Positions 5,402 to 64,000 of a stretch of 64,000 bases of DNA are shown here, in pieces; positions within the stretch are counted from its first letter, which is position 1; each line of letters opens with the position of its first letter. The notes under the pieces were generated by a model that saw only the letters and a list, made by a program, of their open reading frames with translations, was not told the DNA's origin and ran no database searches. The stretch is from IMG/VR virus record IMGVR_UViG_3300021963_000035, positions 84,576-148,575 of that record; one strand, given 5' to 3'. Both the position numbers and the translations under genes were made by a program. This DNA is from a virus.

Positions 5402-5658
5402 TTACAGAGAGATTCGAGTTGGTATCGAATCTCTCTTAATTTATGTCCATGTTCCTGGTGTTGTGGCATAAAGACCTTTATGTCACCGATGACCACGTTA
5501 TGGAAGAAATAATCTAGTTCTTTAGCCTGTGCTAAGAATTGATTATAAAGAGATTCTGCTTTATCTTTTATATTTTCGTCTGTACATTCTTGTATAAATT
5601 TTTTATACTTTTCACAGTCTCTTTCAAATAGTTTATTTCTAGAAATACTAGTCGACAT
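5392..5658 (-). CDS. Hypothetical protein
   Basis: 88-aa ORF overlapping the end of the upstream minus-strand gene. Confidence 0.6.
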   Translation of the reverse strand: MSTSISRNKLFERDCEKYKKFIQECTDENIKDKAESLYNQFLAQAKELDYFFHNVVIGDIKVFMPQHQEHGHKLREIRYQLESLCNQA

Positions 5659-14708: not shown

Positions 14709-15872
14709 ATGGCAGATAAATTCACTCGTTTCCTCGGCGAAGTATTAGGCGGTGCTCTTGCTCCTAAGGGCAACATGGCCAATTGGCAACACGCCACACG
14801 ATTGTTTGTTGATAACAATTATGCTTTCGCTCCTAGAACCAAGTTCATGTACTATGTGTACTTTGAATTGGATGCATCCGTAGCAGGAGCTACCCAGTTT
14901 AAAGCTAGACACGGAGACATGGTAGGCATGTTGGTCAAAAGTTTAGACTTACCTAAGTATACTTTTGAACATATAGTTAAGAATCAGTATAATAAAAAGA
15001 AAATTTGTTATAAAGATATTAAGTACGATCCCGTGAACATAGCGTTTCACGATGATAATACTGGCGTAGTAAATGCTTTGTGGGCATTATACTATGGAAC
15101 TTACGTAGCAGATAGACACTTAGACAAGATAGCATTTGCAACTAATGAATTATATTCTTCCGGTAAGGGTTATGCATATGGATTTGATACTGGACGTTGG
15201 GGAGATTTTATTCGTTCAGTAACGTTATATACTATGAGTCGACAACGATATAATGGTTATACTTTAGTTAATCCTAAAATTTTGTCCTGGCAACACGGAA
15301 CAATGGGCAGTAGCGAAACGGGAGTAGCGGAAAGCACTATGCAACTCGGTTACGAAGCAGTTCTATATTCATCTGGTGTAGTAAAACAAGGACTGCCGGA
15401 TGGATTCGGTAATAACTACTACGACAAAACACCTAGTCCTCTTACTATCGGTGGTGGAGGCACAGCCAGTATATTCGGTGAAGGTGGTACACTAGCAGGT
15501 GTTTCTACAGTATTTGGAAATATTTCTGATGGCACTGCATTTAACAGTTTTGGTGGATTTTTAAGTACAACAGTTGCGGCAATTAATACAGCAAAGAATT
15601 TCGAAGCTGCAAAAGCAAATTTTAAAAACGAAGCTCTTAACATCATAACTTCACCGGCGGCTATCGACGGAGCACTTAATGTGGTCAGCGGATTACCAGG
15701 CACATTATTTCCAAAAAATACTAATGTTACTCCGGATGTAAATGGTGCAGCTATTCCTGCATATAAAGGTGCAGACGTGCCTACAAATGTATTTTCGAAT
15801 CCTGACGCAGCAGCAGGTGGAGGCTTGCCTCAGAGAACATTCCCCTCAGCAGGAGGTGAAAATCAAGGATGA
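14709..15872 (+). CDS. Tail-tube-fold baseplate/tube initiator protein (gp54/gp48-like)
   Basis: VK..DLP, Y.PV.I.FHDD, L.YE tube-fold pattern; position. Confidence 0.6.
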   Translation: MADKFTRFLGEVLGGALAPKGNMANWQHATRLFVDNNYAFAPRTKFMYYVYFELDASVAGATQFKARHGDMVGMLVKSLDLPKYTFEHIVKNQYNKKKICYKDIKYDPVNIAFHDDNTGVVNALWALYYGTYVADRHLDKIAFATNELYSSGKGYAYGFDTGRWGDFIRSVTLYTMSRQRYNGYTLVNPKILSWQHGTMGSSETGVAESTMQLGYEAVLYSSGVVKQGLPDGFGNNYYDKTPSPLTIGGGGTASIFGEGGTLAGVSTVFGNISDGTAFNSFGGFLSTTVAAINTAKNFEAAKANFKNEALNIITSPAAIDGALNVVSGLPGTLFPKNTNVTPDVNGAAIPAYKGADVPTNVFSNPDAAAGGGLPQRTFPSAGGENQG

Positions 15873-23318: not shown

Positions 23319-24290
23319 ATGGCAACATTAGCAGAAATCCGTGCGAAACTTCAAGAAGCACAAACAAAATCCACAGGCCAGAACACTGGCGGCGACAACG
23401 CAATTTATCCCCACTGGAACATGCAAGAAGGTAAAGAAGCTATCCTTCGTTTCTTACCTGACGGTGATTCAAACAACACATTCTTCTGGGTAGAACGTGC
23501 GATGATTAAATTAGAATTTGCTGGCATCAAAGGCGAGTCAGAATCTAAGAAAACAATCGTACAAGTACCTTGTGTAGAAATGTATGGACCAAACGAAGTA
23601 TGTCCAATTCTTAGCGAAGTACGTGGGTGGTTCAAGGACAAATCGTTAGAGGAAAAAGGTCGTCAATATTGGAAGAAGCGTTCATACATCTTCCAAGGCT
23701 TTGTCACTGATGATCCTTTGAAAGAAGATAGTCCACCAGAAAATCCAATCCGTAGATTTATCATTGGTCCTCAGATCTATCAGATCATCCGTGGCGCATT
23801 GATGGATCCAGAATTGGAAGAATTGCCAACAGACGCATTACGTGGAGTTGATTTCCGTATTGTAAAGACTAGCAAAGGTGGTTTTGCTGATTACTCTACT
23901 TCTAAGTGGAGCCGTCGTGAGCGTTCGCTTACTGATGTCGAACAAGCTGCTATTGAAAAATATGGTTTGTTTAATTTGAAAGATTTCTTACCTAAGAAAC
24001 CAACTGATGTTGAACTTAAGGTTATTAAAGAAATGTTTGAAGCATCAGTTAATGGTGAAGCATACGATCCAACTCGTTGGAGTCAGTATTACAAGCCAGC
24101 AGGCATCGGAAGCCAAACTGGTGATCCTTTAAAACAATCTGCATCTAGAGATGATGACCATGCAGACGATGAGCCAGCATCTGCTCCAAAGGCAGCTCCT
24201 GCTCCTCAAGCATCGTCAGCAGCATCTGGTGACAGTAGCAGTCGTGCGCAAGACATCCTTGCCATGATTCGCAATCGTCAGAAACAATAA
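23319..24290 (+). CDS. Single-stranded DNA-binding protein (T4 gp32-like)
   Basis: A.LRFLPD, CP, G.DF...K..KGG.ADY..S motifs; upstream TTGACA/CATAAT promoter and GGAGG RBS. Confidence 0.88.
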   Translation: MATLAEIRAKLQEAQTKSTGQNTGGDNAIYPHWNMQEGKEAILRFLPDGDSNNTFFWVERAMIKLEFAGIKGESESKKTIVQVPCVEMYGPNEVCPILSEVRGWFKDKSLEEKGRQYWKKRSYIFQGFVTDDPLKEDSPPENPIRRFIIGPQIYQIIRGALMDPELEELPTDALRGVDFRIVKTSKGGFADYSTSKWSRRERSLTDVEQAAIEKYGLFNLKDFLPKKPTDVELKVIKEMFEASVNGEAYDPTRWSQYYKPAGIGSQTGDPLKQSASRDDDHADDEPASAPKAAPAPQASSAASGDSSSRAQDILAMIRNRQKQ

Positions 24291-24347: not shown

Positions 24348-24539
24348 ATGGCAAAATTAACAAAGTTAGCGAAAGTAAACGAACAGATCACCATTAATCG
24401 TTATGATAACGGTTGGATGGTAGAGATTGGCGGCCGCGATAAGAAAGAAGAATGGAAAAACACAAAGACAATGTGTAATACCGAGGAAGATGTTATCGCT
24501 GTAATTAAAGAGTGGAATTCAATGGAGTTAGATCAATAA
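24348..24539 (+). CDS. Hypothetical protein
   Basis: AGGAG RBS before MAKLTK; coupled to uvsX. Confidence 0.65.
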   Translation: MAKLTKLAKVNEQITINRYDNGWMVEIGGRDKKEEWKNTKTMCNTEEDVIAVIKEWNSMELDQ

Positions 24540-25618
24540 TGACTAAAGCATTTGATATTTCTAAATTCAGAAAGTCGATTACTAAGAGTATTGAAGGTCT
24601 TAGTATTGGCTTTAATGATCCTACTGATTGGGTCAGCACAGGCAATTATGCCCTTAACTATTTGATCAGCGGAGATTTCCATAAAGGAGTTCCGTTAGGT
24701 AAAGTAACTGTGTTTGCTGGTGAATCAGGTGCGGGTAAAAGTTATATCTGCTCTGGTAATTTGATCCGTCACGCACAAGAACAGGGCATCTATCCTATTC
24801 TAATTGATTCAGAAAATGCTCTAGATGAAGATTGGTTAAAAGCACTTGGTGTTGACACTAGTGAAGATAAACTCTTAAAATTAAACATGGCAATGATCGA
24901 TGATGTTGCTAAAACAATAAATGAGTTTATGACTGAATACAAAGCAATGCCAGAAGACAATCGTCCTAAAGTGTTATTTGTTATTGATTCACTTGGTATG
25001 TTGTTAACACCTACAGATGTTAATCAATTCGAAGCAGGTGATTTGAAAGGTGACATGGGTCGTAAGCCTAAGGCATTGACAGCACTTGTTCGTAACTGTG
25101 TAAACATGTTTGGTAGCAATAATGTAGGATTGGTAGCAACTAATCACACATATGCTAGCCAGGATATGTTTGACCCAGACGATAAGATCAGCGGTGGTCA
25201 AGGTTTTATCTATGCATCAAGTATCGTTGTTGCTATGAAGAAACTAAAACTTAAAGAAGATGACGATGGCAATAAGATCTCAGAAGTACGTGGTATCCGT
25301 GCTGCTTGTAAGGTTATGAAAACACGTTATGCTAAGCCATTCGAAAGTGTACAAGTGAAGATTCCTTATGAAACAGGTATGAATCCGTATAGCGGACTGG
25401 TCGATCTGTTTGAAGCTAAAGAGATGCTCAAGAAAGAAGGTAACAGTCTTGTATATGTAACATCTGATGGTGAGATTATCAAACAATTCCGCAAAGCCTG
25501 GGAACGCAATGATAATCAAGGACTTGACAAACTAATGGCAGACGTAGGATCAAAAGATGGCGAAATTTCTAGATCTGAGATAATTAACAGTATTGAACCG
25601 GAGACTGTTGCAGAATGA
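24539..25618 (+). CDS. uvsX: RecA-like recombinase UvsX
   Basis: GESGAGKS, IDSE.A, VIDSLG, NHTY, SGG.G..YASS motifs. Confidence 0.93.
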   Translation: MTKAFDISKFRKSITKSIEGLSIGFNDPTDWVSTGNYALNYLISGDFHKGVPLGKVTVFAGESGAGKSYICSGNLIRHAQEQGIYPILIDSENALDEDWLKALGVDTSEDKLLKLNMAMIDDVAKTINEFMTEYKAMPEDNRPKVLFVIDSLGMLLTPTDVNQFEAGDLKGDMGRKPKALTALVRNCVNMFGSNNVGLVATNHTYASQDMFDPDDKISGGQGFIYASSIVVAMKKLKLKEDDDGNKISEVRGIRAACKVMKTRYAKPFESVQVKIPYETGMNPYSGLVDLFEAKEMLKKEGNSLVYVTSDGEIIKQFRKAWERNDNQGLDKLMADVGSKDGEISRSEIINSIEPETVAE

Positions 25619-30312: not shown

Positions 30313-30884
30313 TTCTTTTCTAAATAGAAGACATGCTCAATATTATATTGAGTTGCCGTTTTTAAATCAAACTCAGTTTTATATTTTATATCGGGAAATT
30401 CTGAAATAATATTTAAAACTTCCGCTAATGGTAACGAAATATCAACCATGTTCTTTCCGGTATTACACCAGTTTTCATAAACTTTAATAATTTTTTCTTC
30501 TTCAAGGAATGGAGTAAAAATTGTCAACACTGCTCTCTTATTAAAACTTTTTAAAACATTTCTTAAGATAGGTCTCCACTCTTGATTATGTTCTAATACA
30601 TGTCGTATGTGTATGGCATCCACAGATGTAGTGTAAGTAACTAAATCTTCAATTTTATCAACAAACACAGATTCAGATCCGTCGACCCCAACATATGTTT
30701 GATGTTCTGCTACATATTTCTTAAATCCGCCAAACCCACATCCCCAATCTTCGATAGTTAAAATATCTTTTTGATTGAGCCACTTGCTGGCTAGATCTGC
30801 TGTATGTGGGTCTGAATATATTTTTCTTTTAGTTCTGCCTTTATAATATTCATTCCATAGTCCTACTTTAGATTCTGTATTCAT
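30309..30884 (-). CDS. Class I SAM-dependent methyltransferase
   Basis: DWGCGFG motif I; HVLEH. Confidence 0.8.
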   Translation of the reverse strand: MNTESKVGLWNEYYKGRTKRKIYSDPHTADLASKWLNQKDILTIEDWGCGFGGFKKYVAEHQTYVGVDGSESVFVDKIEDLVTYTTSVDAIHIRHVLEHNQEWRPILRNVLKSFNKRAVLTIFTPFLEEEKIIKVYENWCNTGKNMVDISLPLAEVLNIISEFPDIKYKTEFDLKTATQYNIEHVFYLEKN

Positions 30885-32404
30885 TTTTTTACCCTTAATA
30901 AATCTTCTATTGTGTATAATTTTTTCATAAACTTTGAAGGATCAGATAATACGCTAACCTCTAAATCTCCTTCTCTCCTTGGACCAACTTCGACATCGAA
31001 ATCTGCATCATTTACTTCTTTAAATATATCAACCATTTGTCGCACACTGGTACCAACTCCGTGGCCTAAGTTTTCAATTCTATTTGTAGACTTGTCAACT
31101 CCCCTAATGACTGCGTGACATATTTCATTTACGTGCGTGTAATCTCTGATGCAAGTACCATCTTCAGTATTATAATCATCACCAAATATTGTAAATTTCC
31201 CAGAGTCAATCGCAGCTATTAGGCTAGCAAACAGTCCGTCTGGATTTGTTGGATTTATTCCGTCGGCTCCAGTAACATTGTAAAATCTAAAAATAGTAAA
31301 AGGAATTTTATGATTCTTACAATACTCAAAAACAATGTCCTCCATTGCACGTTTACTAATACCGTATGGACTACCTAGTCCTGCTGCTGCTCCGGTAGAA
31401 GCAATCACTAATCTTTTTGTTTTTATTTTATTAAGAACATTTAATGTTCCGATAGTATTAGTTTGATAGTATAGTGTTGGAGTTATAACACTTCGTCCTA
31501 CAGCAACTTCTGCTGCAAGATGAATTACACAATCAAAAGTTTCTGTAATATTCCAGTCAGTATCTTCTGTAATGTTTTGTTTATAAAATTTATCCACAGG
31601 CAACAAAGGATCTTGTTTATCTAATCCGTATACAATCCAATCCCGATCTCTTTCAATCATTTGACAAAGATGACTACCGATGTATCCAGAATTACCTGTG
31701 ATCAAAACCTTTTTTGCTCGGTCATTTCCCCAGAAGTTATTCTTACCTCGTACTAGAGATTTTTTTCCGTCTTCGCCAATTAAAGCACGACCCATTATAT
31801 GACTATGTACTTGTATTTTTACAATTAGTGCTGTTATAGCATTGTCGGATGGTAGCCAAGTTTCTTTGTACATGTCAACTAACTTCTTTGCTGCCGCAGG
31901 AGTGATTGCATATCCTGGAGTACCTGGCATAGATCCTTGCCAATATTCTTCTGCACGTGGTTCACCGGTTGGATTGTCAAGATAATGCCAATATTTTGCT
32001 GCTTTAGTTTGATTTCCAAAAACAGTTATTAACACTTCTTCAAATTCTACGTCCTCATATGGCCTAGTAAAAATTACATCGTCCTCTAATATCATTATAG
32101 GTTCGTTTAGTTCTATGCATTTTTCCCAAAGTCTATAATGACTGTCAAAGCAGCCCATTTCACCAGGATTTTGTTGGTCATCTCTAAACTCTTCAGTAAA
32201 AGGATTCAGGGGCCCGTTTTTAAAATTCCAAGGATGATACCTGCGACCAGTTTCCTGATATCTTTTCTTTGTTTCGTCTCCATACGATCCCTCAAATAGT
32301 TCTGCATCCATTCCATATTCGTCAAGGGCTTCTTTGACTTTGAGTGCAGTGTCTAAAGAAGGTTTTATCTTAGACAAACAAATTATAAACGCTTTCATTT
32401 CCAA
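30881..32404 (-). CDS. GT25 glycosyltransferase fused to NAD-dependent epimerase (GalE-like)
   Basis: GEMGCFDSH..LW and ILEDD (GT25); ITGNSGYIGSH, YGISK, RDYTHV (SDR epimerase). Confidence 0.82.
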   Translation of the reverse strand: MEMKAFIICLSKIKPSLDTALKVKEALDEYGMDAELFEGSYGDETKKRYQETGRRYHPWNFKNGPLNPFTEEFRDDQQNPGEMGCFDSHYRLWEKCIELNEPIMILEDDVIFTRPYEDVEFEEVLITVFGNQTKAAKYWHYLDNPTGEPRAEEYWQGSMPGTPGYAITPAAAKKLVDMYKETWLPSDNAITALIVKIQVHSHIMGRALIGEDGKKSLVRGKNNFWGNDRAKKVLITGNSGYIGSHLCQMIERDRDWIVYGLDKQDPLLPVDKFYKQNITEDTDWNITETFDCVIHLAAEVAVGRSVITPTLYYQTNTIGTLNVLNKIKTKRLVIASTGAAAGLGSPYGISKRAMEDIVFEYCKNHKIPFTIFRFYNVTGADGINPTNPDGLFASLIAAIDSGKFTIFGDDYNTEDGTCIRDYTHVNEICHAVIRGVDKSTNRIENLGHGVGTSVRQMVDIFKEVNDADFDVEVGPRREGDLEVSVLSDPSKFMKKLYTIEDLLRVKK

Positions 32405-33204
32405 TAATCCTCTGTTCTGTTGATTTTTAAATCTGATCTTTTACTCTTACCTAACATTTTTCTATCGCCTTTGAGGTGATCAAGGTAAGCACCCCAGGCA
32501 CTGTTAATCAATGGATGACCTTCACCTGTTATTATTCCTTCACTCCAGTTAAGTTGTTCTAGAAACGGAAATTTTACTCGAACAGAATCAAAAACAAAAC
32601 TGTCGTGCCACTCATCTAGTAAAAATATTCCTGCTTCTGCACGGTCATACATTCTCTGGAACTCATTGAGGAAATTTCTAGTCATTTCTGATCTTAAATT
32701 TAAGGAGTATAGACCGCATTCACTATATTTGCCCTGACGTCCTAAATAACATAGGTCATAATTGTTAGGTATTAGATTTTCTATCTGTTCTAAGGTAATA
32801 GGGCTGTGACATACAGTGTCAGCATCCATCCATATTAAAATATCTGCGTCAGTTGTTTTTGCACAATGGAAAATTGCATAAACTTTATGTGCAAATCTTA
32901 CAGCATCCCACTTGAAAGGCTTATGACTGTCCTTCCTAGCGGCCAATCGGGGAAAACTTGATATATCTCCGTTGGCGTGTGGAATATTTTTCCATTTATC
33001 TTTAAATGCTATTAGATCTGGCACACTGGTTCTCATGTCAGTTAGCGTGATCTGCGTATGATCTGGTACTGCTGGATTTGTATCTTCGGGGTATAGATGT
33101 AATGTTACTTCCTTGGGCCAATTTTTACAAAAACTGTCAATCATACGCTGGCCATATGCTTTTAATCCCTTATCGTTAAACGTTGTTACCACAGCGTATT
33201 TCAT
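32395..33204 (-). CDS. GT-A glycosyltransferase
   Basis: RFAHKV.A, WMDAD DxD, EWHDS, DHLKG. Confidence 0.75.
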   Translation of the reverse strand: MKYAVVTTFNDKGLKAYGQRMIDSFCKNWPKEVTLHLYPEDTNPAVPDHTQITLTDMRTSVPDLIAFKDKWKNIPHANGDISSFPRLAARKDSHKPFKWDAVRFAHKVYAIFHCAKTTDADILIWMDADTVCHSPITLEQIENLIPNNYDLCYLGRQGKYSECGLYSLNLRSEMTRNFLNEFQRMYDRAEAGIFLLDEWHDSFVFDSVRVKFPFLEQLNWSEGIITGEGHPLINSAWGAYLDHLKGDRKMLGKSKRSDLKINRTEDYWK

Positions 33205-42063: not shown

Positions 42064-42160
42064 AATTATCTTTTTACCTTTTATACGAATAAGAGAAAAA
42101 TATCTGTATAAGAAGAGATTGAAAGAACTACGTAACAGGGATCCGTTTATCTACAAATGA
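42047..42160 (+). CDS. 37-aa basic peptide coupled to carbamoyltransferase (not in ORF track)
   Basis: MRKLIRIIFLPFIRIREKYLYKKRLKELRNRDPFIYK; stop overlaps next ATG (ATGA). Confidence 0.6.
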   Translation: MRKLIRIIFLPFIRIREKYLYKKRLKELRNRDPFIYK

Positions 42161-43614
42161 TTACTTGGGGAATATCTGCTAACAGCCACGACGCTGCACT
42201 AACCGTTTTCTTAGATGAAAAGATAGCCTTTGCTAGCCATAGTGAACGATTTAGTAAAATAAAAAATGATCCGGATCTAGATCGAGATCTAATAAATTAT
42301 GCGCTGCGATGGGGCGAACCTCAACGAATCTACTGGTACGAAAAACCTTTTAAAAAATCACTAAGGCAATTAATTGCAGGTCAGGGATTCAATTTTGCTG
42401 AAAATAATATTAAAGAATACTTAAGAAAATTTAATATTAAGCAACCGATCACTTATGTTGATCATCATTTAAGTCACGCCGCCGGAGGATACTATACCAG
42501 CGGATGGGACAGTGCTGCAATATTAGTCATTGATGCTATTGGAGAATTTACCACAGCAAGTATGTGGAGAGGACAAGGCAGAGATATAAAACCCTTGTGG
42601 AAAATGAAATATCCTAACAGCATTGGTCTGTTTTATTCCGCAGTTACAAAAGCTGTGGGATTAAAACCAAATCAGGACGAATACATATTAATGGGTATGG
42701 CAGCATACGGTGACCCTTACAAATTCTATGATCATTTCTTTGACAACTACATAAATCTAGATGATCTAACATTTAAGCAGAACTTCCATAGAGGTATCAG
42801 TGATCTCGAAAATTTAATCAAGACAGAAAAAGATAAATTTGATATCGCAGCCACAGCACAATTATTTTATGAAGATATGTTTGATAATCTTTTGTTAGAT
42901 CTGTATATCGAAACGAAAGAACGCAAACTGATTCTTAGCGGAGGCTGTGCATTAAATTGTTCTGCAAATAAACTAGCATTTCAGTGGTTTGATGATGTAT
43001 GGATAATGCCTAACCCGGGAGATGCTGGTAGTAGTTTAGGCTGTGTATTAGCACATAACAAATGGCACACCTATTGGCCCGGACCGTATTTAGGTTACAA
43101 CATACCCGGAGAGTATCCGGTGCAATCTATAATTAAAGAATTAGAAAACAACAAAATATGCGCAGTGGCTAGTGGCCCTGCAGAGTTTGGTCCAAGAGCA
43201 TTGGGCAATCGCAGTCTGTTAGCTGATCCGAGAGATCCCGGCATCAAAGATCGTGTTAATGATATCAAACAACGACAAAAGTTTAGACCATTTGCTCCTG
43301 TAATAATGGAACACTTAGCTGAGAAGTTTTTTGATATGCCTGCTAAAAGTACACCTTACATGCAGTTCACGGCTGTGTGTCGTGAGCCTAGCAAATATCC
43401 TAGTATCATCCACCAGGATGGTACTAGTCGTGTTCAAACAGTTAACAGAGATCAACATCCTGGATTATACGCTGTACTAGAACATATGTGGCATAAACAC
43501 GGTTGTGCAATGTTATTGAACACTAGTTTAAATGTCAAAGATCAACCAATGCTCAACGACTTAGTCGATGCCAAGAATTGGACCAGCCAATACGGTTTAC
43601 CTGTTATATCATAA
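42157..43614 (+). CDS. O-carbamoyltransferase (NodU/CmcH family)
   Basis: HDAA, ERFS..K, HH.SHAA, GGCALN, GDAG, EFGPRALGNRS, RPFAP, LNTS.N. Confidence 0.93.
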   Translation: MITWGISANSHDAALTVFLDEKIAFASHSERFSKIKNDPDLDRDLINYALRWGEPQRIYWYEKPFKKSLRQLIAGQGFNFAENNIKEYLRKFNIKQPITYVDHHLSHAAGGYYTSGWDSAAILVIDAIGEFTTASMWRGQGRDIKPLWKMKYPNSIGLFYSAVTKAVGLKPNQDEYILMGMAAYGDPYKFYDHFFDNYINLDDLTFKQNFHRGISDLENLIKTEKDKFDIAATAQLFYEDMFDNLLLDLYIETKERKLILSGGCALNCSANKLAFQWFDDVWIMPNPGDAGSSLGCVLAHNKWHTYWPGPYLGYNIPGEYPVQSIIKELENNKICAVASGPAEFGPRALGNRSLLADPRDPGIKDRVNDIKQRQKFRPFAPVIMEHLAEKFFDMPAKSTPYMQFTAVCREPSKYPSIIHQDGTSRVQTVNRDQHPGLYAVLEHMWHKHGCAMLLNTSLNVKDQPMLNDLVDAKNWTSQYGLPVIS

Positions 43615-49614: not shown

Positions 49615-49912
49615 ACTAAACCGAGTCCGGGTGGGGGGTATATTGATAAAAGTCTTGCCCAAATGGGGGTACAGGGGTAAAAAAATTAGGGCGCAAAAAA
49701 ATTAAGGTTTAACTACTTTTTCATCATGGTGGTGATTCTGCTACCCCTTGTTGCGTTTTTACAACACTACACACATTACGCCCCCCACCCCCCTCCACCA
49801 TGCCTCACCCTCCCACCCCATCCTTCAGAAAAATCCCAGAATTCCTGAAATTACCTAAAAAACCTAATCTAGCCCTCAGGGGGGTAGGATAACCCTGATC
49901 CCCCCAGGGTCT
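49615..49912. other. Non-coding strand-switch region with G-runs then C-runs (candidate genome end or origin)
   Basis: No ORF; convergent transcription; homopolymer tracts. Confidence 0.45.
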
Positions 49913-49947
49913 TTCGGTGGTGAGAAAGGCGACAGCACAGGGGCTGT

Positions 49948-49982
49948 AAAAAAACACAGTGTTGCAGTAGCGCAACACTGTG
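49948..49982 (-). terminator. Intrinsic terminator built without GG/CC
   Basis: CACAGTGTTGC-N6-GCAACACTGTG followed by T7 on minus strand. Confidence 0.75.
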
Positions 49983-50006
49983 CAAAAATGCAGTGTTGTT
50001 AAAACA

Positions 50007-50588
50007 CTACACAGCAGTAATAGTTACAATGTTGTTAAGCGCAATAGTGCGGCAAATAGCATTGTGTGTAATGTTGTGTGTAACATTGTGCGTTTGTGTG
50101 TTGCGATTAAACAACTGTTGTGCTTGCGCAGGCGTTAAGTATTGTGCAACGTCTTGCTTAGTTGCAAGTGTGTTGTTAATAAAATACATTGTGCTAGTTT
50201 GTGCGTTGTTAAAAAGCGCATACAAGTATTGTGCTAGCGTTTGCTTGTGTTGCACTACGCTATAGCAGTTAGTATGCTCAAAATAGTTTTCCTGCGCTGT
50301 AAACGCTTGCACATTGTTAGCGTTGTTAGTGGGGATAGCACTAGCAGTTTGTTTAACTAGCGTTGTGTATTGTGCGTTACTGTTAGCGTATAGCGTTACT
50401 GTTGCTTGTGTAACTTTTTTAATAGTAACGTCTTTGCATTTTGCGCTTGTTTTTACATTTGTAACATATGTAATTTGTGCGTTTTGCTGTTGTGCGTTGT
50501 TTAACACATTTGCTACGCATAGCGCAGTGATGTGTTGCTGTTGTGCGTGTTGTTGCAGTGCTGTTTGTGCTGTGTGTAGTGTTAGCAT
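50007..50588 (-). CDS. Early protein of extreme composition (Q/T/N/A/H-rich; no G/W, only 2 D, 2 E, 2 P)
   Basis: Own promoter (TTGCAC..TGCTATACT), AAGGA RBS, terminator. Confidence 0.75.
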   Translation of the reverse strand: MLTLHTAQTALQQHAQQQHITALCVANVLNNAQQQNAQITYVTNVKTSAKCKDVTIKKVTQATVTLYANSNAQYTTLVKQTASAIPTNNANNVQAFTAQENYFEHTNCYSVVQHKQTLAQYLYALFNNAQTSTMYFINNTLATKQDVAQYLTPAQAQQLFNRNTQTHNVTHNITHNAICRTIALNNIVTITAV

Positions 50589-50971
50589 TTTGCTAGTCCT
50601 TTTTTTTGTTGCTACACAATGTTGTGTAGTGCAGTTAGTATAGCACCGTTTTGGCTGTGTGCAACAAATAATTTAATAACATATTTTCTCAAGGGTCTTT
50701 CTCGGATACGCCTACCCCGACGCAGCAGCTGAACATGTGTCCACGGGGTTAGGTGCTGTCCCGGCGCATGCAGCTCACATGTGCTGTCGGGGTTGCATGC
50801 CTTTTGTCCCTGTGCAGTGATGTTGTGCAGCAGGATCGCCCTGGGGCATGCGTCGTGCTGGCGTCCATCGAGGATCCTTGCGGGGAGGATAAAAAAAGCC
50901 CGCCGGGTCTATTCACCGGACGGGCCAAAGGGGGAGGAGTAAGCCCCCGAGCACACTACGCAAAAATCAAA

Positions 50972-51157
50972 TCATCTGCTGTCCAGCCATTCATCGTGGC
51001 GGATCATGACGGTCCCCACCCAGGCTATCAGAAGACCGCCTAGCGATATCAGCACGGCTCCTAGTAGCATTGTGTCGTTGAGGCTGTTCTCTACGCCCCC
51101 GACCCCGAACATGGTTACGATTAATCCTACGATGAAAACAAACATACCTCGCTTCAT
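50972..51157 (-). CDS. Small two-TM membrane protein
   Basis: Coupled to upstream gene; hydrophobic. Confidence 0.65.
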   Translation of the reverse strand: MKRGMFVFIVGLIVTMFGVGGVENSLNDTMLLGAVLISLGGLLIAWVGTVMIRHDEWLDSR

Positions 51158-51402
51158 ACCGCCTCCACTGCTTGAGTAAAATAATCTGTGTTGAGATAGT
51201 CGTAGACTTCCAGGAGGCTGTCATCGTCTAACTCTCGGATACGCTGCTTGATGGTTTCCAGGTCCCAGCCATCCTCATCGAGATTGATAACCCCGAGGTC
51301 GAAGTCGAGGGCATACTGGAGAGCATCCTCGTTAGCATCGTCCCAGTAGAGCTCTAGGATCTCTACCACGGTGTCCTGTATCCTGGTCTTGATGTCGCTC
51401 AT
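51154..51402 (-). CDS. Highly acidic early protein
   Basis: AGGAG RBS; GGTTGACA..TAAACT promoter. Confidence 0.75.
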   Translation of the reverse strand: MSDIKTRIQDTVVEILELYWDDANEDALQYALDFDLGVINLDEDGWDLETIKQRIRELDDDSLLEVYDYLNTDYFTQAVEAV

Positions 51403-51539
51403 CTTGTGCTCCTTTAATTAAACAGTATCTAGAGTTTAACAGATTTTTGGATCCTGTCAACCAAAATAGGCCGCTGTGTAGCGGGGTCTATGGTGGTGTT
51501 GCACTAGCGCAACAGTGTGCGCTAGTGCTGTGTTACAGT

Positions 51540-51872
51540 TTAAGTAAACAAACGCAATACAATGCTGTTTTGTGTTACTACAATTTGCGCATTGTGTTTT
51601 TTAGCAATTTGCGTTAATGCTAAACAAACGCTTGTTGTGTTGTAAATTGTAACAGTTGCAAAGCGTTTACGAAAATTAGTAAAAATACGCTTTGTAAAAT
51701 ATTGTGCTTGCGCTGCTAATGCTAATGCGCTTAACTGTGCGTGTTGCTGTGCAGTATACAAATTTGCATACTGCGCATTTTGCTGTTTAGCGTGTAGTAT
51801 AGTGCGCAATTTACTGCGTGTGTTTTGTGTGTGCTTTGTGTGCTGCACTTGCACTTGTGTTTGTGTTTGCAT
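51540..51872 (-). CDS. Basic early protein with no D, E, G, P or W
   Basis: Extended -10 TGTTATAGT upstream; downstream hairpin; 110-aa open frame. Confidence 0.65.
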   Translation of the reverse strand: MQTQTQVQVQHTKHTQNTRSKLRTILHAKQQNAQYANLYTAQQHAQLSALALAAQAQYFTKRIFTNFRKRFATVTIYNTTSVCLALTQIAKKHNAQIVVTQNSIVLRLFT

Positions 51873-51976
51873 AGTGTGTGCTGTTTAAGTTGCTGCATAA
51901 AATTATGCAGTAACTACACTATAACACAAATTTAAAAAACTTTAGCGTTTTTAGAAACTTATTTTCCGTAGGGTCT

Positions 51977-52180
51977 TTATTGCCACAACTGCTGCTGCCG
52001 CTGCCAGCATGAGGGATTGCTCTGGGGTGTGCCCTTGCAGTTGAGATTCCTGGATTGACGAGGGGGGACCTGTTCAAACAGTGCGTGGCCAGGCTCCGGA
52101 TCCATGTGGAACCTCTGAGGGGCGCAGCCGGCAAGGATCCCGACGAGGACCCCGATGGTGACCATGGATGAAATCTTCAT
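51977..52180 (-). CDS. Putative lipoprotein
   Basis: Signal peptide with LAGC lipobox. Confidence 0.65.
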   Translation of the reverse strand: MKISSMVTIGVLVGILAGCAPQRFHMDPEPGHALFEQVPPRQSRNLNCKGTPQSNPSCWQRQQQLWQ

Positions 52181-52401
52181 GAAGGTGTGTGGGGTTGGTT
52201 GATGACCGCCAGGCCACGTGCCCTGGCATCCGCTTTAAGATATCTCATTAGTGCTCTCTGGATTCTCTCTTCGACGAAAGCCGCTTCCGCTGCTGTGAGC
52301 TCGGTCTCGGGAAGTTCGTCGTTAAGGACTTTAAGGACCACAGCCTGGCGATCAGCTGCCAGTCCCTGTGGTGTGAAGGTACACTTGCGCCATGTAGTCA
52401 T
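52177..52401 (-). CDS. Hypothetical protein
   Basis: Coupled ORF. Confidence 0.6.
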   Translation of the reverse strand: MTTWRKCTFTPQGLAADRQAVVLKVLNDELPETELTAAEAAFVEERIQRALMRYLKADARARGLAVINQPHTPS

Positions 52402-52748
52402 GTTTTCATATACTCCGCGCCCAACTCCTGTGGAATCGTCACGTTGGTTCCGGTGGGGAATTTCTGTGCTATCAGCTGGATCAGTTGCTTGGGATCATTG
52501 TGTTGCCCCAGGAAGCGATCACTAGGATGTTCGTAGGCGTAAAGGGTGTCACCGTGCCGCTCGATCTTGACCGTGGCCTGTGCTTCAGGTTCGTCTTGTG
52601 ATTCGATGGCTGCTCTCAGCTTCTGCTCTAATTCCCGGGGATCGATTCCCGCGGCACGCAGCGCGGACTTCATCATAGATCTAATGACGATACCGTGTAC
52701 GGCCCAACCTAACCAGAATGCGAAAGCGAAAAGGATGATCAGTTCCAT
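52398..52748 (-). CDS. Membrane-anchored hypothetical protein
   Basis: TAAATA-N5-ATG; N-terminal TM; LYAY....FL.Q. Confidence 0.7.
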   Translation of the reverse strand: MELIILFAFAFWLGWAVHGIVIRSMMKSALRAAGIDPRELEQKLRAAIESQDEPEAQATVKIERHGDTLYAYEHPSDRFLGQHNDPKQLIQLIAQKFPTGTNVTIPQELGAEYMKT

Positions 52749-52849
52749 AATTGTATTTACTCCAGGTTGCTGCTGCCTTGCATGTAGCGGGGTCTATGTT
52801 CATAGTATAGCACACGACCTGCTCACCTGCAAGTCGTGTGCTGTTGTGT

Positions 52850-53170
52850 TTAAGCCACAGCGTATTGCCGCAATGCTTGCTCAACTGCTATTACTGCTAG
52901 TTTGCTTCGGCCGCCAACGTGCCAGTCTGTAATGTGCTGTTTAGCAAGCCCTGCTTCGCCGCAGTAATTTTTGCCATCTTTGTAATTGTAGATAGTTGCA
53001 ACAACGCCGTTGCTAAATTGCAACTCCCATTCTGCGTCCGTCTTGTAAGCGTCCCCCTCGCTGTGCTCTGGGCCAAACACGTCTACAAGTGTTGCGTAAT
53101 CTACATTAACATAACCCTGCAAGCTAGTGCCGTTTACTGCTTGCCATTTTGCTTGTTTAAAAGTTAGCAT
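52850..53170 (-). CDS. Early hypothetical protein
   Basis: AGGAGCG RBS; TTGACA..TATTAT promoter; L...FG.P, ATIY.YK, WHVGG motif. Confidence 0.8.
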   Translation of the reverse strand: MLTFKQAKWQAVNGTSLQGYVNVDYATLVDVFGPEHSEGDAYKTDAEWELQFSNGVVATIYNYKDGKNYCGEAGLAKQHITDWHVGGRSKLAVIAVEQALRQYAVA

Positions 53171-53235
53171 TTTGCGCTCCTGTTGTTCACTGCGTTATTG
53201 CAGTGTGTTTATAATAGCACCTGTTGTCCAAAATG

Positions 53236-53382
53236 TCAACCACGTAGACCCTGTAGATAACTCTCACGCAGGAGTCGACGCTGTTCTTTGTAGCGTAGCT
53301 GTCTGGCCAAAAAGCCCGGAGATTCAAACCAATCTTGTAGGCAATGACGGGTTTGTCGGCGACGCCTTGCTCTCATCTTCAT
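53236..53382 (-). CDS. 48-aa Arg-rich peptide (not in ORF track)
   Basis: AGGAGCGAAC RBS before ATG; MKMRARRRRQ... Confidence 0.55.
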   Translation of the reverse strand: MKMRARRRRQTRHCLQDWFESPGFLARQLRYKEQRRLLRESYLQGLRG

Positions 53383-53413
53383 GTTCGCTCCTTGTCTTTA
53401 ACTGTCAACCAAA

Positions 53414-53626
53414 TTAATATGCAGCTTCGTCTGGTGCACCCCAGGCGCACTCACGTTCCTGAGCGCGGATCATCTCCCACTGATCACGGATCACAAGCTT
53501 GGCCGCAGCCACGTCCCCGTTGCATTCTTCGAGGATGTCGTTATAATCTGCTGCGTCCCAGCACTCTACGATCCAATGACCGCCTGCTTCGTAGTTGTCC
53601 AGGGCATACTGATAAAGTTCGTTCAT
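53414..53626 (-). CDS. Acidic early hypothetical protein
   Basis: AGGAGCG RBS before MNELYQ; promoter upstream. Confidence 0.7.
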   Translation of the reverse strand: MNELYQYALDNYEAGGHWIVECWDAADYNDILEECNGDVAAAKLVIRDQWEMIRAQERECAWGAPDEAAY

Positions 53627-53682
53627 TTTGCGCTCCTTGTTGTGGAGTTCATATAATAACACATTTTGGGCTCAGTGCAACC

Positions 53683-53767
53683 AAAAAAAAAGGATAACCC
53701 TACGTGCTGTAAGGTTATCCTTGGAACTGCTACAGCTTCCCGGGAGCGAATCGGTTTAGGCCATAGC
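53683..53767 (-). ncRNA. Candidate 3'-UTR anti-Shine-Dalgarno hairpin plus terminator (copy 1)
   Basis: CCGATTCGCTCCCGGG identical to copy 2; outer stem GCUAUGGC/GCUGUAGC. Confidence 0.5.
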
Positions 53768-54049
53768 TGCTTCTTTGGCTGCTGCCTTAGAAGTCTTTGC
53801 GGGAGCGTACTTGCTCTCAACGTGTTCAATCGCGGACTGAACAGCGGCATTTCCCTGACCGTAGCCGATGCTGCGGAGATGGGCCACGATTTCAGCCTTG
53901 GTCATCTCGTGTGGGAGATTGATCAGGTCCACATCGTTGTGGCCGTTCTTTGCCAGGATCTTGATTCGCATCTGATCGTTGGCGAAGCGCAGCTTGGTCT
54001 TGCCATTAAGGGTTGAAACGCCTGCTACTGAAAAACGCTTGTCTGTCAT
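53756..54049 (-). CDS. Hypothetical protein
   Basis: GAGG RBS; TTGACA promoter; VAGVS..NG..K.RFAND. Confidence 0.75.
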   Translation of the reverse strand: MTDKRFSVAGVSTLNGKTKLRFANDQMRIKILAKNGHNDVDLINLPHEMTKAEIVAHLRSIGYGQGNAAVQSAIEHVESKYAPAKTSKAAAKEAAMA

Positions 54050-54145
54050 TTGAGTTACCTCTCTGTGTGTTTAAAAAAAGCACCAAACCATTTGGTACGT
54101 TATTATGTTAACACCGGTTTGGTTTGGTGTCAACCGTTTTTTTGC

Positions 54146-54337
54146 CTAATTTGGCAAAACTTGTATCGTAACGCTTTGGGTCTCTCCCAATGCGTTCACG
54201 AAAGCATCATCGTATACTAGTTCCTTGAAAGTCAGATCCAGCATCTCTTCAACCATCGCGAGATCAGCAGATCCATCTGATGCGCATTCGATCGTTAAAC
54301 GGAATTCATATGTTCTCATCGTTGCCAGCTTTCCCAT
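54146..54337 (-). CDS. Hypothetical protein
   Basis: ORF in the minus-strand run. Confidence 0.55.
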   Translation of the reverse strand: MGKLATMRTYEFRLTIECASDGSADLAMVEEMLDLTFKELVYDDAFVNALGETQSVTIQVLPN

Positions 54338-54597
54338 TTAAGAAGATACAGTGCCAATGCTTCTTCAGCCAGATACACACTGCTCTTTTCACTGTCCCAT
54401 GCCCACTTAGGTTGGGTCCCATCGAAGAAGTCAGGACGAGCAAATGCCAGCTCAGCACTGGGTCCAAACTGCATCCACAGCCAGTTACGGCTCTGGATCC
54501 ATTGATTCACCCTCTCGTCTCTACCGTAGAATTCTACCCTATGGCTGAATCTGCCATAGCCATCATATCTCCGGTCTAATTTAATAAGTTTCATCAT
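54316..54597 (-). CDS. Hypothetical protein (small family ending ..LKW)
   Basis: W.W.QFGPS.EL motif; start at MMKLIKL. Confidence 0.6.
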   Translation of the reverse strand: MMKLIKLDRRYDGYGRFSHRVEFYGRDERVNQWIQSRNWLWMQFGPSAELAFARPDFFDGTQPKWAWDSEKSSVYLAEEALALYLLKWESWQR

Positions 54598-54622
54598 ACA
54601 TGCACATGCGTAGTAGCGGGGT

Positions 54623-55282
54623 CTATGAGTTGACTGTGTTATGAGGATCGTATTCCCCAATCAGCCCTACAGACTTACGCTGTTCCGCACCTTCCTTAAC
54701 GAATGCATAGAGTTCTTCCTCCATGCGTTGCTCTTCTTCATACTCAGCGAGATACTCACTGATACCAAACATCTCGTCCAGCTCTTCTGGAAGGATATCA
54801 CGAGCCTCTTCACTGGTCTGCCATTCGGTCCAGCAGTTGTCCTCACCATCCTCATAGACTCCAGCGAAACACATGCCGGGCTCGTAATACATAGCGCGGA
54901 TCTTGTAGCCTTGCTCTTCCATGATGGGATAGATGTTCAAAGGCGGCGACCAGGCAGTATCAAAGTTCAGAACGATATTGTTCTCATCGATACGGCTGTC
55001 TCCTCCACGCTCGCCACAGTCCCACTTGGTTCCCCAGTTGCTGGTCTGCCAGTCATACCAATCCTTAGCGCCAAAATACTTGAGATTCAGTTGCTGTTTG
55101 AACTGATTCAGTTCCTCAGCATAACTGTCTCCCAGATAACCGGCCACGGTCTCGTGCAGTTCCTTAGGGCAAGGTTTGATGTAATCCAACATCCGCCCTT
55201 GTCTGAATGCACGACGTAGACCCGCGATCTTGCGAGGATCTTCGTGGCTGACTTCCAAATGATTGTTGCACCAATTAGGCAT
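54623..55282 (-). CDS. DUF1281/YubB ferredoxin-like family protein
   Basis: MPNWCNN, WYDW...NWGTKW, FDTAWSPP, YYEPGM.F.G. Confidence 0.8.
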   Translation of the reverse strand: MPNWCNNHLEVSHEDPRKIAGLRRAFRQGRMLDYIKPCPKELHETVAGYLGDSYAEELNQFKQQLNLKYFGAKDWYDWQTSNWGTKWDCGERGGDSRIDENNIVLNFDTAWSPPLNIYPIMEEQGYKIRAMYYEPGMCFAGVYEDGEDNCWTEWQTSEEARDILPEELDEMFGISEYLAEYEEEQRMEEELYAFVKEGAEQRKSVGLIGEYDPHNTVNS

Positions 55283-55971: not shown

Positions 55972-56019
55972 GTCTGTTCCTTTGTGCTAATAATAACAGG
56001 GCCCTAAGGCCCTGTCAAC

Positions 56020-56388
56020 TCAATCAACTACATGCACTTCCTTAAAGCTCTCGTAGCCGTATTTCTTTTCCCACGCGGCAATAAAGTCCCCGTCTACGTC
56101 TAAGCTAACGTAGTTGTCTCCCTGCATGCCCTGCTCGCTGTAGTCTGCTTCCGCAAGGCCCTGTTCTGCGAGGAATGCGTTAAGCTCTACTAAAAAGTTG
56201 CTGTCTGTGTAAATTAGTCCGTCTTCGTTAACGTCCCAATCGTCTGTGTTAAAATACACGCACAGCTCGCCAAAGTCTTTGTCGTCTACAACATAGCCCA
56301 AGTCTATGCCTGTAATACGCACTGCCTTAGACACTTTGCTCCAGTAGCCGTCGCCAGCAGTGTTAAAAGTTGCTCTCACTGTTTGCAT
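56020..56388 (-). CDS. Acidic early protein lacking Pro
   Basis: AGGAGCGAA RBS; own promoter. Confidence 0.8.
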   Translation of the reverse strand: MQTVRATFNTAGDGYWSKVSKAVRITGIDLGYVVDDKDFGELCVYFNTDDWDVNEDGLIYTDSNFLVELNAFLAEQGLAEADYSEQGMQGDNYVSLDVDGDFIAAWEKKYGYESFKEVHVVD

Positions 56389-56455
56389 TGTTTCGCTCCT
56401 GTGTGTTAATGTTCAAATAGTATAACAGGGCCCTAAGGCCCTGTCTACCAAAATA

Positions 56456-56818
56456 TTAAATACCCTGGAACTTTGAAAGGACTTCTTGTGCGCTTTCATC
56501 TAGCATAACTGCGTCCATAGCCTTGCGCTTCTCAATGTCAAGCTCTGCGCGGTATGCTTCCATAGCCAGCTTCTTTGCTTCCATTGCGGGCCAAACTACA
56601 TCTTGCGGGTTGAGGTAAGGACCTGTATAATCTTCCTTTTCCTCTTTAAGTGTGATCTCGCCTGCTTTAATTGCTGCGAACACTTGTCCCCAGGTAGGCT
56701 GTTGAGGACGACCGCTAGGACCAAAAAGTTCTACAGCCTTAGACTGTAGTTTATCTGCAACGATCTCCTCCAAACGGCGGATGAAGTAAGAACGTTGTTC
56801 TGTGGACATTGCTTGCAT
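56456..56818 (-). CDS. Hypothetical protein
   Basis: AGGAGCG RBS; promoter. Confidence 0.75.
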   Translation of the reverse strand: MQAMSTEQRSYFIRRLEEIVADKLQSKAVELFGPSGRPQQPTWGQVFAAIKAGEITLKEEKEDYTGPYLNPQDVVWPAMEAKKLAMEAYRAELDIEKRKAMDAVMLDESAQEVLSKFQGI

Positions 56819-59054: not shown

Positions 59055-59596
59055 TTGTGTCCAATCTTCATATAACGGGTAAATCCCCATGTAGGGTATT
59101 TAAACGATTTCTCGCCCGTATATAAAGATTGTGACATAGGCCAACAGTTGCTGAACTCGTCTATGCTAGTGTAGCAGTGTACGTGATCATCATGGGGCAT
59201 GTCATTGCCCTGTAGCGCGATCAGTGTCCCGTTGGGAATGCGATCGTACCACTCGCGGGAATCAATGTGTTCCACGCTGGTGTTGATGATTAGATCAGGA
59301 GCAGTAGTCCAGGTCAGCTGATTAACATCTGCGGTTACTGCTGTAAACTCACCCTGCCAGTGCCACAGACGGTTCACGTGTATGGCCGTGCTTTCGCAGC
59401 TAGGATCTATGTCGTAGCTGGTAACATGTTGTATGGGTAGAGTGTTCTGTGTGCGCAACAGCAGGTTGGTAGTACAATACCAGCCCGCAAGTACATGTAT
59501 GCGTAAGGGTTGCAGCGGGGTCAATACCTGTGCTAGTGTCTCCCCGAGCCAGAGCTTGGATCCTATCTGGCCTGAGGAGAAACTATCCCAATTCAC
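59051..59596 (-). CDS. SAM-dependent methyltransferase-like protein
   Basis: VLAGWY, SYDIDP, DLIINTS.EH motifs. Confidence 0.65.
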   Translation of the reverse strand: MNWDSFSSGQIGSKLWLGETLAQVLTPLQPLRIHVLAGWYCTTNLLLRTQNTLPIQHVTSYDIDPSCESTAIHVNRLWHWQGEFTAVTADVNQLTWTTAPDLIINTSVEHIDSREWYDRIPNGTLIALQGNDMPHDDHVHCYTSIDEFSNCWPMSQSLYTGEKSFKYPTWGFTRYMKIGHK

Positions 59597-63414: not shown

Positions 63415-64000
63415 CTTTCATGCAGGTTACTTCAGCCATACTCCGCCAGTTGTCAGGAAAGCTCTTGCGCAGATCTGACACCTTCAACACCATGCGCAGG
63501 CTGAGTTCGCGCATACGTTGTTTATTATCAGTGATGAATTCGACCACCTCATCGCGGACGGATTCTTCGAACTCATATGAATCCAGCATACCATCCTCTA
63601 CGATCTGGCGGATGCGCAACATCTTCTCACGTTCCGTGTCCATGGTCAGGTCCAGATAGTGACAGCGACTTTCCAGGGCCTCGAGGTGATCACGTAGCTT
63701 CTTTGAACGAACGTGTTCAAACTTGATGTTAGTGATGAAGATAGCACCCGCTTTAAACTCAAACTTGTCAGGTACGCCCTCATTACGTAGCACCCTAGAA
63801 TCAGTGTTCCAGCTAATGGTACGCTTCTTACTACTGTCCAAGGCCGCCTTCAAGATGTTCAAGCTGAGATCATCCAGCAGGATTGAGTCACAGTCATCGA
63901 ACACGATAACGTTACCCTTCTCTGAATACTTGTACAATTGCGAGTAAAGACCCACAGCACTCATGGCGCCCTTGATCACTTCGTACTTGGGCTTGCGTTG
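63407..64000 (-). CDS. AAA-type ATPase (5' truncated by window)
   Basis: IVFDDCD Walker B, LKAALDS, IFITN, ALESR. Confidence 0.75.
   Translation of the reverse strand, partial: QRKPKYEVIKGAMSAVGLYSQLYKYSEKGNVIVFDDCDSILLDDLSLNILKAALDSSKKRTISWNTDSRVLRNEGVPDKFEFKAGAIFITNIKFEHVRSKKLRDHLEALESRCHYLDLTMDTEREKMLRIRQIVEDGMLDSYEFEESVRDEVVEFITDNKQRMRELSLRMVLKVSDLRKSFPDNWRSMAEVTCMKGA

Follow-up and report, generated by a model that had tools for sequence, protein, structure and literature searches.

T4-type phages carry promoter-early stem-loops (PeSLs), which have been described in RB49/phi1, T4/PST and KVP40/nt-1 (Arbiol et al. 2010, PMC2839356; Comeau et al. 2014, PMC4122927). These elements begin at the stop codon of the upstream gene, and combine a sigma-70 promoter preceded by an AT-rich tract with a stem-loop of variable position, often made of G-runs and C-runs (PMC2839356; PMC4122927). 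They are found in hyperplastic regions of ORFans, where they mediate indels, replacements and modular shuffling (PMC2839356; PMC4122927). Here, we analyze an 8-nt word, GGGTCTWT, repeated in a 64,000-nt stretch of viral DNA (IMG/VR record IMGVR_UViG_3300021963_000035, positions 84,576 to 148,575), hereafter named the window, which forms the last 64 kb of one 148,575-bp contig. An original prediction had described the word as a polar motif bracketing short islands depleted of certain dinucleotides. Islands 1 and 2 are nearly free of GA, GG, TC and CC (GR/YC steps) on both strands, and islands 3 and 4 (for the latter, at 56174-56427) are free of TC and CC on the sense strand only. We conclude that the word is probably one arm of a junction element, made of a stop codon, a stem-loop and a promoter, placed between single-gene early cassettes, i.e. 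an ordinary seam. The mechanism is probably of the known PeSL kind, while the phage group, uncultured freshwater giant phages, and the element family are new.

On the plus strand of the window, GGGTCTWT occurs at 49907, 50693, 50905, 51484, 51971, 52790 and 54619, so that the predicted run of seven same-orientation copies in 4.7 kb was fully recovered; the single minus-strand copy is at 63946. The whole contig contains 8 copies on the plus strand and 1 on the minus strand, 7 of these 9 being grouped at 49907-54626. The local 18 kb, which is richer in G+C, was simulated 3000 times with a second-order Markov model, and the number of same-strand copies in 4.8 kb never rose above 3, compared to 7 observed. 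These simulations, together with the conservation of the word in a relative, L136 (see below), rule out pure chance. The prediction had also evoked polar signals of the Chi, KOPS or injection type. All seven copies indeed have the same orientation, but this is simply the orientation of the early genes: all genes from ~49.9 to 64 kb are on the minus strand, in whose sense the word reads AWAGACCC, and the cluster is polar because the whole early array is co-oriented. As the 148.6 kb contain 9 copies in all, with 7 grouped in a single patch, there is neither a genome-wide distribution nor a skew, and a genome-wide polar guide, or a cluster due to chance only, is hardly conceivable. Over 1.27 Mb of related loci, the word is not enriched either (0.042 copies per kb on both strands, for ~0.049 expected).

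The seven copies form a composite set, with three copies of class A, three of class B, and one, at 50905, in the loop of a terminator. Class A, read in gene sense, is AAAGACCCT and is found at 49907, 50693 and 51971. Class B is the 15/16-mer ATAGACCCCGCTAC, found at 51484, 52790 and 54619. The exact 15-mer announced by the prediction is real: the 16-mer is identical over 16/16 positions at 51477 and 52783, and over 15/16 at 54612, and a degenerate fourth copy is present at 59511. Searched in viral contigs, this exact 15-mer gave 37 single hits, none homologous by blastn, which we read as chance; only two of them gave translated matches, which were unrelated and located elsewhere in the genome. 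The stop codon of the preceding gene falls within the word at genes 51977-52180 and 54623-55282. As the prediction had it, two copies border no island: the one at 54619, which overlaps the second of these stop codons, and the one at 50905. The latter is treated as a chance copy, and terminator and copy are both missing at the orthologous place in L136.

Between ~49.9 and 64 kb, the ~35 small open reading frames (ORFs) have no Pfam or PHROG hits, and most of the ~24 junctions between them carry near-consensus sigma-70 promoters, AGGAGCG-type ribosome sites and hairpins. The canonical junction element spans ~55 nt, is seen ~100 times in contigs of related freshwater phages, and contains successively the stop codon of the preceding gene, an upstream arm AAWRACCCT, a 9-nt spacer, a downstream arm AGGGTCTTT, GG, the -35 hexamer TTGACA, 17 nt and the -10 hexamer TATAAT. 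It was searched for in related viral contigs with the downstream arm and the -35 hexamer, leaving the upstream arm unconstrained. This search returned 81 stretches, corresponding to 74 distinct instances. TATAAT was found at the right distance in 64 of the 74, and CC was found at -13/-12 in 68, so that the 9-nt spacer is fixed. The upstream arm often includes the TAA or TGA of the preceding gene. Judged by its sequence, class A is this upstream arm. The inverted GGGTCT that had been noticed at 53246 is also present, and in gene sense it is a downstream arm joined to the promoter of island 3.

An intact hairpin, with two perfect 8-bp arms and a 9-nt spacer, is found in L136 at 15650-15676, downstream of island 1. 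At its window counterpart, 49907, the second arm has degenerated, and other bases are paired in the fold of lowest energy. The same succession of arm, 9-nt spacer and arm, followed by an early promoter, is present in L118, at two places in L122, and in 7 or more other relatives. The L118 and L122 hairpins stand after homologues of the island-3 gene, and their folding energies are -19 and -22 kcal/mol, with z-scores of -4.5 and -5.4. By analogy, the intact stem-loop may act as an attenuator or a terminator.

Class B is the start of a second family. Its sequence, GACCCCGCT and then G or A, is found in sense orientation in non-coding DNA of the relatives, often with a hairpin and a TTGACA promoter (L067, L144, L150 and L173). 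It also forms short arrays in non-coding DNA (4 copies in L148, 2 in L118 and 2 in L296), and no conserved RNA fold was found for this class. Alternating pyrimidine-purine tracts of 15-18 nt, prone to adopt the Z-DNA form, often precede or follow class B words (window 54598-54622 and 59480-59505; L118 40-60; L148 2100-2600), and four units associating a class B word and such a tract are arrayed within 450 nt in L148. Another repeat family of the window (55989-56028) has a stable stem-loop, placed inside the promoter spacer. The promoter before gene 52398 (52806-52840; L136 12680-12712) also contains a hairpin within its spacer, and the stem of this hairpin changes compensatorily, from CACGAC/GTCGTG in the window to CAGGG/CCCTG in L136.

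Coordinates of the word copies, of the islands and of the recombinase gene are collected in Table 1. L136, a 20.6-kb part of a 351,068-bp metagenome contig, is syntenic with the window, with 70-95% amino-acid identity. It keeps the word at the sites matching 54619, 52790, 51971, 50693 and 49907, and approximately at 51484; neither the 50905 copy nor the inverted one is kept. At 52783-52798, a 20-nt block including class B is identical in L136, while the upstream cassette and the downstream leader differ, and a related word stands at the same gene (52398-52748) in L067. At 54612-54627, a 13-nt core is kept in L136, and the word is part of an insertion that L086 and L065 lack, their two genes being directly adjacent. 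The class B hairpin at 51477-51492 is followed by the TTGACA promoter of gene 51154-51402; homologous arrangements exist in L173 and L348, and only an approximate copy in L136. The position matching 51970-51978 is occupied in L347 by the common variant of the arm. As for the downstream arm belonging to the 53211-53252 copy, it lies inside ORF 53236-53382. The public metagenome contig L347 carries sequencing-adapter sequence at both ends (1-60 and 590-649).

Table 1. Word copies, islands and recombinase gene (positions in the window)
Feature	Coordinates	Strand	Remarks
Class A copy, downstream of island 1	49906-49914	-	By homology, upstream arm of the hairpin closing the early array
Class A solitary arm, 27 nt upstream of the -35 of the island 1 promoter	50692-50700	-	Identical in L136
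Putative chance copy in intrinsic terminator loop (50890-50925), after gene 50972-51157	50905-50912	-	
Class B 16-mer, downstream of island 2; upstream arm of a weak T-run hairpin	51477-51492	-	
Class A, overlaps the stop of gene 51977-52180, 24 nt upstream of the island 2 promoter region	51970-51978	-	
Class B 16-mer, downstream of island 3	52783-52798	-	Directly after the putative extended -10 promoter of 52398-52748
"Inverted" copy: downstream arm with -35/-10 of the island 3 promoter	53211-53252	-	Slightly diverged canonical element
Class B, overlaps the stop of gene 54623-55282, precedes gene 54316-54597	54612-54627	-	Borders no island
Degenerate class B, in the 502-nt spacer after the HNH endonuclease gene	59511-59526	-	
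Island 1, GR/YC-free unit: promoter, ORF 50007-50588, terminator	49943-50686	-	
Island 2, GR/YC-free transcription unit, ORF 51540-51872	51496-51953	-	
Island 3, YC missing on the sense strand only, ORF 52850-53170	52792-53246	-	
Island 4, ORF 56020-56388, between two copies of the other promoter-with-hairpin repeat (D1)	55989-56457	-	
RecA/UvsX-like recombinase	24512-25618	+	

Comparison of close relatives revealed several exchanges at these junctions. The slot before gene 52398-52748 contains the island-3 gene in the window, and a 77% homologue of the island-4 gene in L136. Reciprocally, the slot between genes 56456 and 55540 contains the island-4 gene in the window, and in L136 a gene related (37%) to that of island 3. 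For both swapped slots, the flanking promoter and hairpin sequences are conserved and the ORF alone differs. A third slot was examined with L348, a near-identical strain. Its sequence matches that of the window across island 2, the class B word and the promoter that follows, up to and including the start codon, after which another ORF stands in place of gene 51154-51402; L136 has other genes again, so that three different genes occupy this slot in three close relatives. The replacement of the ORF in L348 is complete and begins 5 nt into the gene. A clustered change of 4 nt, ACAC to GTAT, is also seen in the loop beside the class B word (L348 568-864 compared to window 51380-51540). The breakpoints of homology between the window and L136 fall at the word in several places: the word upstream of island 2 and the 54619 word are each the exact point at which homology begins, and the word downstream of island 2 is where it ends. 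At the 50693 site, homology runs ~25 nt further upstream of the word. Finally, upstream of the homologues of gene 52398, a class B word is present in all 3 phages having a cassette there (window, L136 and L067) and missing in all 4 phages devoid of one (L086, L057, L066 and L138).

We propose the following scheme for these exchanges. The junction element would separate autonomous early transcription units in uncultured freshwater giant phages, and most window copies would be solitary arms left at seams between single-gene units. As the elements are repeated between unrelated ORFs and across phages, they would offer short homologies, at which UvsX/gp32-type recombination encoded by the phage itself would replace, insert or delete ORFs. 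The recombinase listed in Table 1 and a gp32-like gene at 23319-24290 make a plausible machinery for such short-homology exchange. The part of the earlier interpretation dealing with cassette borders is thus right in substance: the word is kept at the same borders in L136, ORFs have moved between slots, and several breakpoints fall at the word or next to it, whereas a dedicated site-specific system is not supported. Such a system would use the 8-9-mer as the core of a recombination site (att- or integron-like), inserting and excising depleted cassettes and leaving direct repeats behind. A perfect 9-bp direct repeat does flank island 1, and a 7-of-8 repeat flanks island 2; the two islands have homologous ends around unrelated ORFs, and one breakpoint with L136 is exactly at the word. 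However, no match to Phage_integrase, Resolvase, Y1_Tnp (Y1 transposase) or GIY-YIG was found in the 148-kb fragment, an absence that is unproven for the genome, of which the fragment represents ~42%. Moreover, the cassettes have their own promoters, and where swaps are observed, the break falls in a promoter or at a start codon. Islands 1 and 2 occupy matching positions in L136, with no sign of mobility, and the word is part of a longer promoter-linked element in the relatives. We therefore consider site-specific recombination at the word very unlikely. An inverted repeat of 14 nt outside the direct repeats of island 1, envisaged as the hairpin of an empty site, was dropped, as it is not conserved in L136.

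Why then does the word bracket islands? The pairs of words described at islands 1 and 2 hold, the word lying 0-6 nt from five of six island edges and 29 nt from the sixth. The likeness of the right borders was also confirmed, islands 1 and 2 sharing there a 29-nt segment with 79% identity (repeat D18). Their left borders share a 39-nt terminator segment with 82% identity (repeat D8), found nowhere else in viral contigs. A GGTGGTG motif beside two left borders was tried as a part of the signal and dropped, since it is not conserved in L136 at island 1. The two islands have no detectable paralogy with each other. With the island-2 protein, a search of viral contigs gave no relative; homologues were noted elsewhere in L136 (83%) and L215 (54%).

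Depleted units run from ~50-70 nt upstream of the predicted start site to the terminator. On the upstream side of islands 1 and 2, depletion begins 3-17 nt past the arm. The canonical downstream arm with its TTGACA contains five avoided dinucleotides, and in the islands it is replaced by GR/YC-free text; the -35 hexamer of island 1, for instance, is TTGCAC. The junction elements belonging to the islands themselves would thus have been rewritten under the same pressure as the genes, leaving only the arm that lies outside. The class A arm stands 27 nt from the -35 of island 1 in the window and 15 nt in L136, and 24 nt from that of island 2 compared to 17 nt in L136. Past the terminator, ordinary sequence resumes with the arm of the following element, and no special boundary function is needed. 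In short, islands are probably bracketed by the word because each of them coincides with one transcription unit, beyond which ordinary junction sequence begins with the arm.

The original prediction had also put forward an enzyme modifying or protecting DNA at GR/YC steps, for which the word would be a boundary or loading signal. The avoided steps are three of the five dinucleotides of the word, on either strand, and in two phages depletion begins 0-6 nt from the word at most edges. However, any ordinary sequence beside a depleted unit contains avoided steps, and in the relatives the word is part of a widespread junction element flanking mostly non-depleted genes. Moreover, island 4 and the depleted genes of other relatives are devoid of the word. 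A 7-deazaguanine modification of the DpdA type was envisaged for the avoidance of GR; the 148-kb fragment contains neither a TGT/DpdA-like gene nor a QueC gene. Such a signal is unnecessary to explain the geometry of the islands, and we regard it as extremely unlikely. The window encodes a glycosyltransferase-epimerase fusion, a second glycosyltransferase and a carbamoyltransferase among the replication genes (30881-33204 and 42157-43614). These could act on DNA or on surface sugars, neither being favoured.

Depletion itself is conserved. The L136 orthologues of the island-1 and island-2 genes (86% and 83% amino-acid identity) are also depleted, although less strictly, and their zones are bracketed by the word. 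In L136 (13601-14000, 14901-15600 and 12296-12664), GR/YC steps of the orthologous islands amount to 1.5-4.3 per 100 nt, compared to 0-1.4 in the window, and the L136 relative of the island-3 gene is not depleted. The strength of depletion therefore varies between close lineages.

Other relatives offer further cases. The island-1 protein (50007-50588) has a 46%-identical homologue in L134 (5001-5540), encoded by a gene of normal composition; their alignment shows changes from Glu to Gln and from Asp to Asn, and losses of Gly and Ser, in the window copy, indicating that GA, GG, TC and CC were removed at the cost of amino-acid changes. From the sequence, this removal looks like selection rather than simple deamination bias, as a Glu to Gln change requires a G-to-C change. 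L134 has a separate, fully depleted gene beginning near 6127. In L118, a 2-kb run (3438-5432) of at least 6 consecutive early genes with their promoters has almost no TC or CC on the sense strand, and depletion is there regional rather than island-like. The 54% homologue of the island-2 gene in L215 (766-1083; also in L216-L220) is depleted of GA and GG on the sense strand, and not of TC and CC, a polarity opposite to that of islands 3 and 4. Upstream of island 1, the G+C-rich non-coding spacer 50700-50890 contains tandem imperfect palindromes (ACCCCG ... CATG ... CGGGGT), and related units are found in L136 (13560-13600 and 14740-14880) and L138.

Several observations weigh against the word being the arm of a stem-loop at cassette seams. 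Most window copies lie outside stable hairpins, as solitary arms or in weak hairpins: no partner arm was found for class A upstream of islands 1 and 2, nor for class B at 52790 and 54619, and the minimum-energy fold does not involve the 49907 copy. The arms vary on one side only, never compensatorily, and the spacer is fixed in length and free in sequence. The window and L136 have the same 8-mer at five of 6 orthologous sites, while their non-coding DNA is ~80% identical, suggesting a constraint on the sequence itself. In addition, several exchanges break at the promoter, the Shine-Dalgarno sequence or the start codon, and not at the word. Lastly, the word is missing at the borders of depleted genes in the distant relatives L066, L057, L134 and L215, and island 4 is not flanked by it, so that the predicted conservation at island borders applies to L136 and does not extend to more distant phages.

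The behaviour of arms and spacer suits a protein-binding site at least as well as a terminator. The word could accordingly be the site of a sequence-specific phage or host protein (operator, insulator, nuclease or nickase), the hairpin potential being incidental. A dimer would bind the palindromic box, whose spacer length and distance to the -35 are both fixed, and a monomer would bind a solitary arm. Spacers are indeed nearly all different (25 distinct among 26 well-matched instances) while arms and spacer length are conserved, the arms are devoid of compensatory changes, and solitary arms are kept between the window and L136. For class B, the identical 20-nt block covers the predicted start site of gene 52398 between diverged flanks, and the short arrays of L148, L118 and L296, together with the lack of a conserved RNA fold, point in the same direction. 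On the other hand, no candidate binding protein was identified, class B is placed variably (after the -10, before the -35, or without any promoter), and the distances from the class A arm to the -35 given above differ between the window and L136. Conservation could also stem from the recent spread of one element by recombination. This explanation, which is not exclusive of the cassette seam, seems to us rather unlikely. A narrower version, in which the box of two arms and spacer, found in ~100 early promoters of this phage group, is a dimeric-protein operator or insulator and not an RNA hairpin, and the solitary arms are fences of GR/YC-free immediate-early units, appears distinctly doubtful. 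In two phages, depletion begins a few bases from the arm, and its extent is roughly that of an RNA polymerase footprint together with the DNA that is transcribed. If this version were true, the word would help set units apart, for example as a stop for a GR-directed modification or scanning activity.

The phage is a myovirus-like giant phage with a tail sheath, and its T4-type terminase and the one found in PA5oct-type phages are 54% identical. With an estimated completeness of 42%, the contig is a fragment. A nucleotide search of the region against deposited phages, in near and distant modes, gave no match, and Rfam gave nothing beyond one sub-threshold hit between 46 and 64 kb; hundreds of related contigs are present in freshwater viromes. 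The early array starts after a strand switch (49615-49905; L136 15680-15930), from plus-strand replication genes to the minus-strand early genes. This region contains long G-runs and C-runs, and A/T-runs, is ~81% conserved in L136, and may be an origin or a regulatory region.

The main value of these results lies in what they say on the depleted islands, which are still unexplained. A tempting special explanation is removed, since the presumed border motif is probably the standard seam of promoter/stem-loop cassettes. Furthermore, the conservation of depletion in a relative diverged by 14-17% in protein sequence sharpens the problem. The comparison also supplies concrete, recent replacements of single ORFs between near-identical wild phages, and puts on record a probable promoter/stem-loop cassette system in a large group of freshwater giant phages not yet cultured.

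Among known systems, Chi and KOPS resemble the word as 8-mers used in one orientation. They are over-represented over the whole chromosome, with a replication-linked skew, whereas the word is confined to one 4.7-kb patch of the early-gene array. Integron cassettes (attC) are similarly made of single ORFs with conserved ends and unrelated contents, placed head to tail in one orientation. Here, however, the 148-kb fragment yielded no integrase, promoters are part of the cassettes, each island has a terminator as well, the ends are direct repeats and not attC-type imperfect inverted repeats, and exchange points lie in promoter and start-codon homology. PeSLs are the known system closest to the junction element. 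Both are repeated composite elements among small ORFan early genes, starting from the upstream stop codon, with an AT-rich tract, a near-consensus sigma-70 promoter and a strong Shine-Dalgarno sequence. In both, the position of the stem-loop varies (here upstream of the -35, or within the spacer, an example being 55989-56028), the elements are sites of insertions, deletions and ORF replacements between related phages, and T4-like recombination genes are present. The element described here differs in being carried by a ~351-kb uncultured freshwater giant phage that is not strictly T4-like, in its stem-loop being conserved in sequence and not in structure alone, with a spacer always of 9 nt, and in its many solitary arms without hairpin. 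Finally, some of its units are devoid of GA, GG, TC and CC, a property not described for PeSL cassettes.

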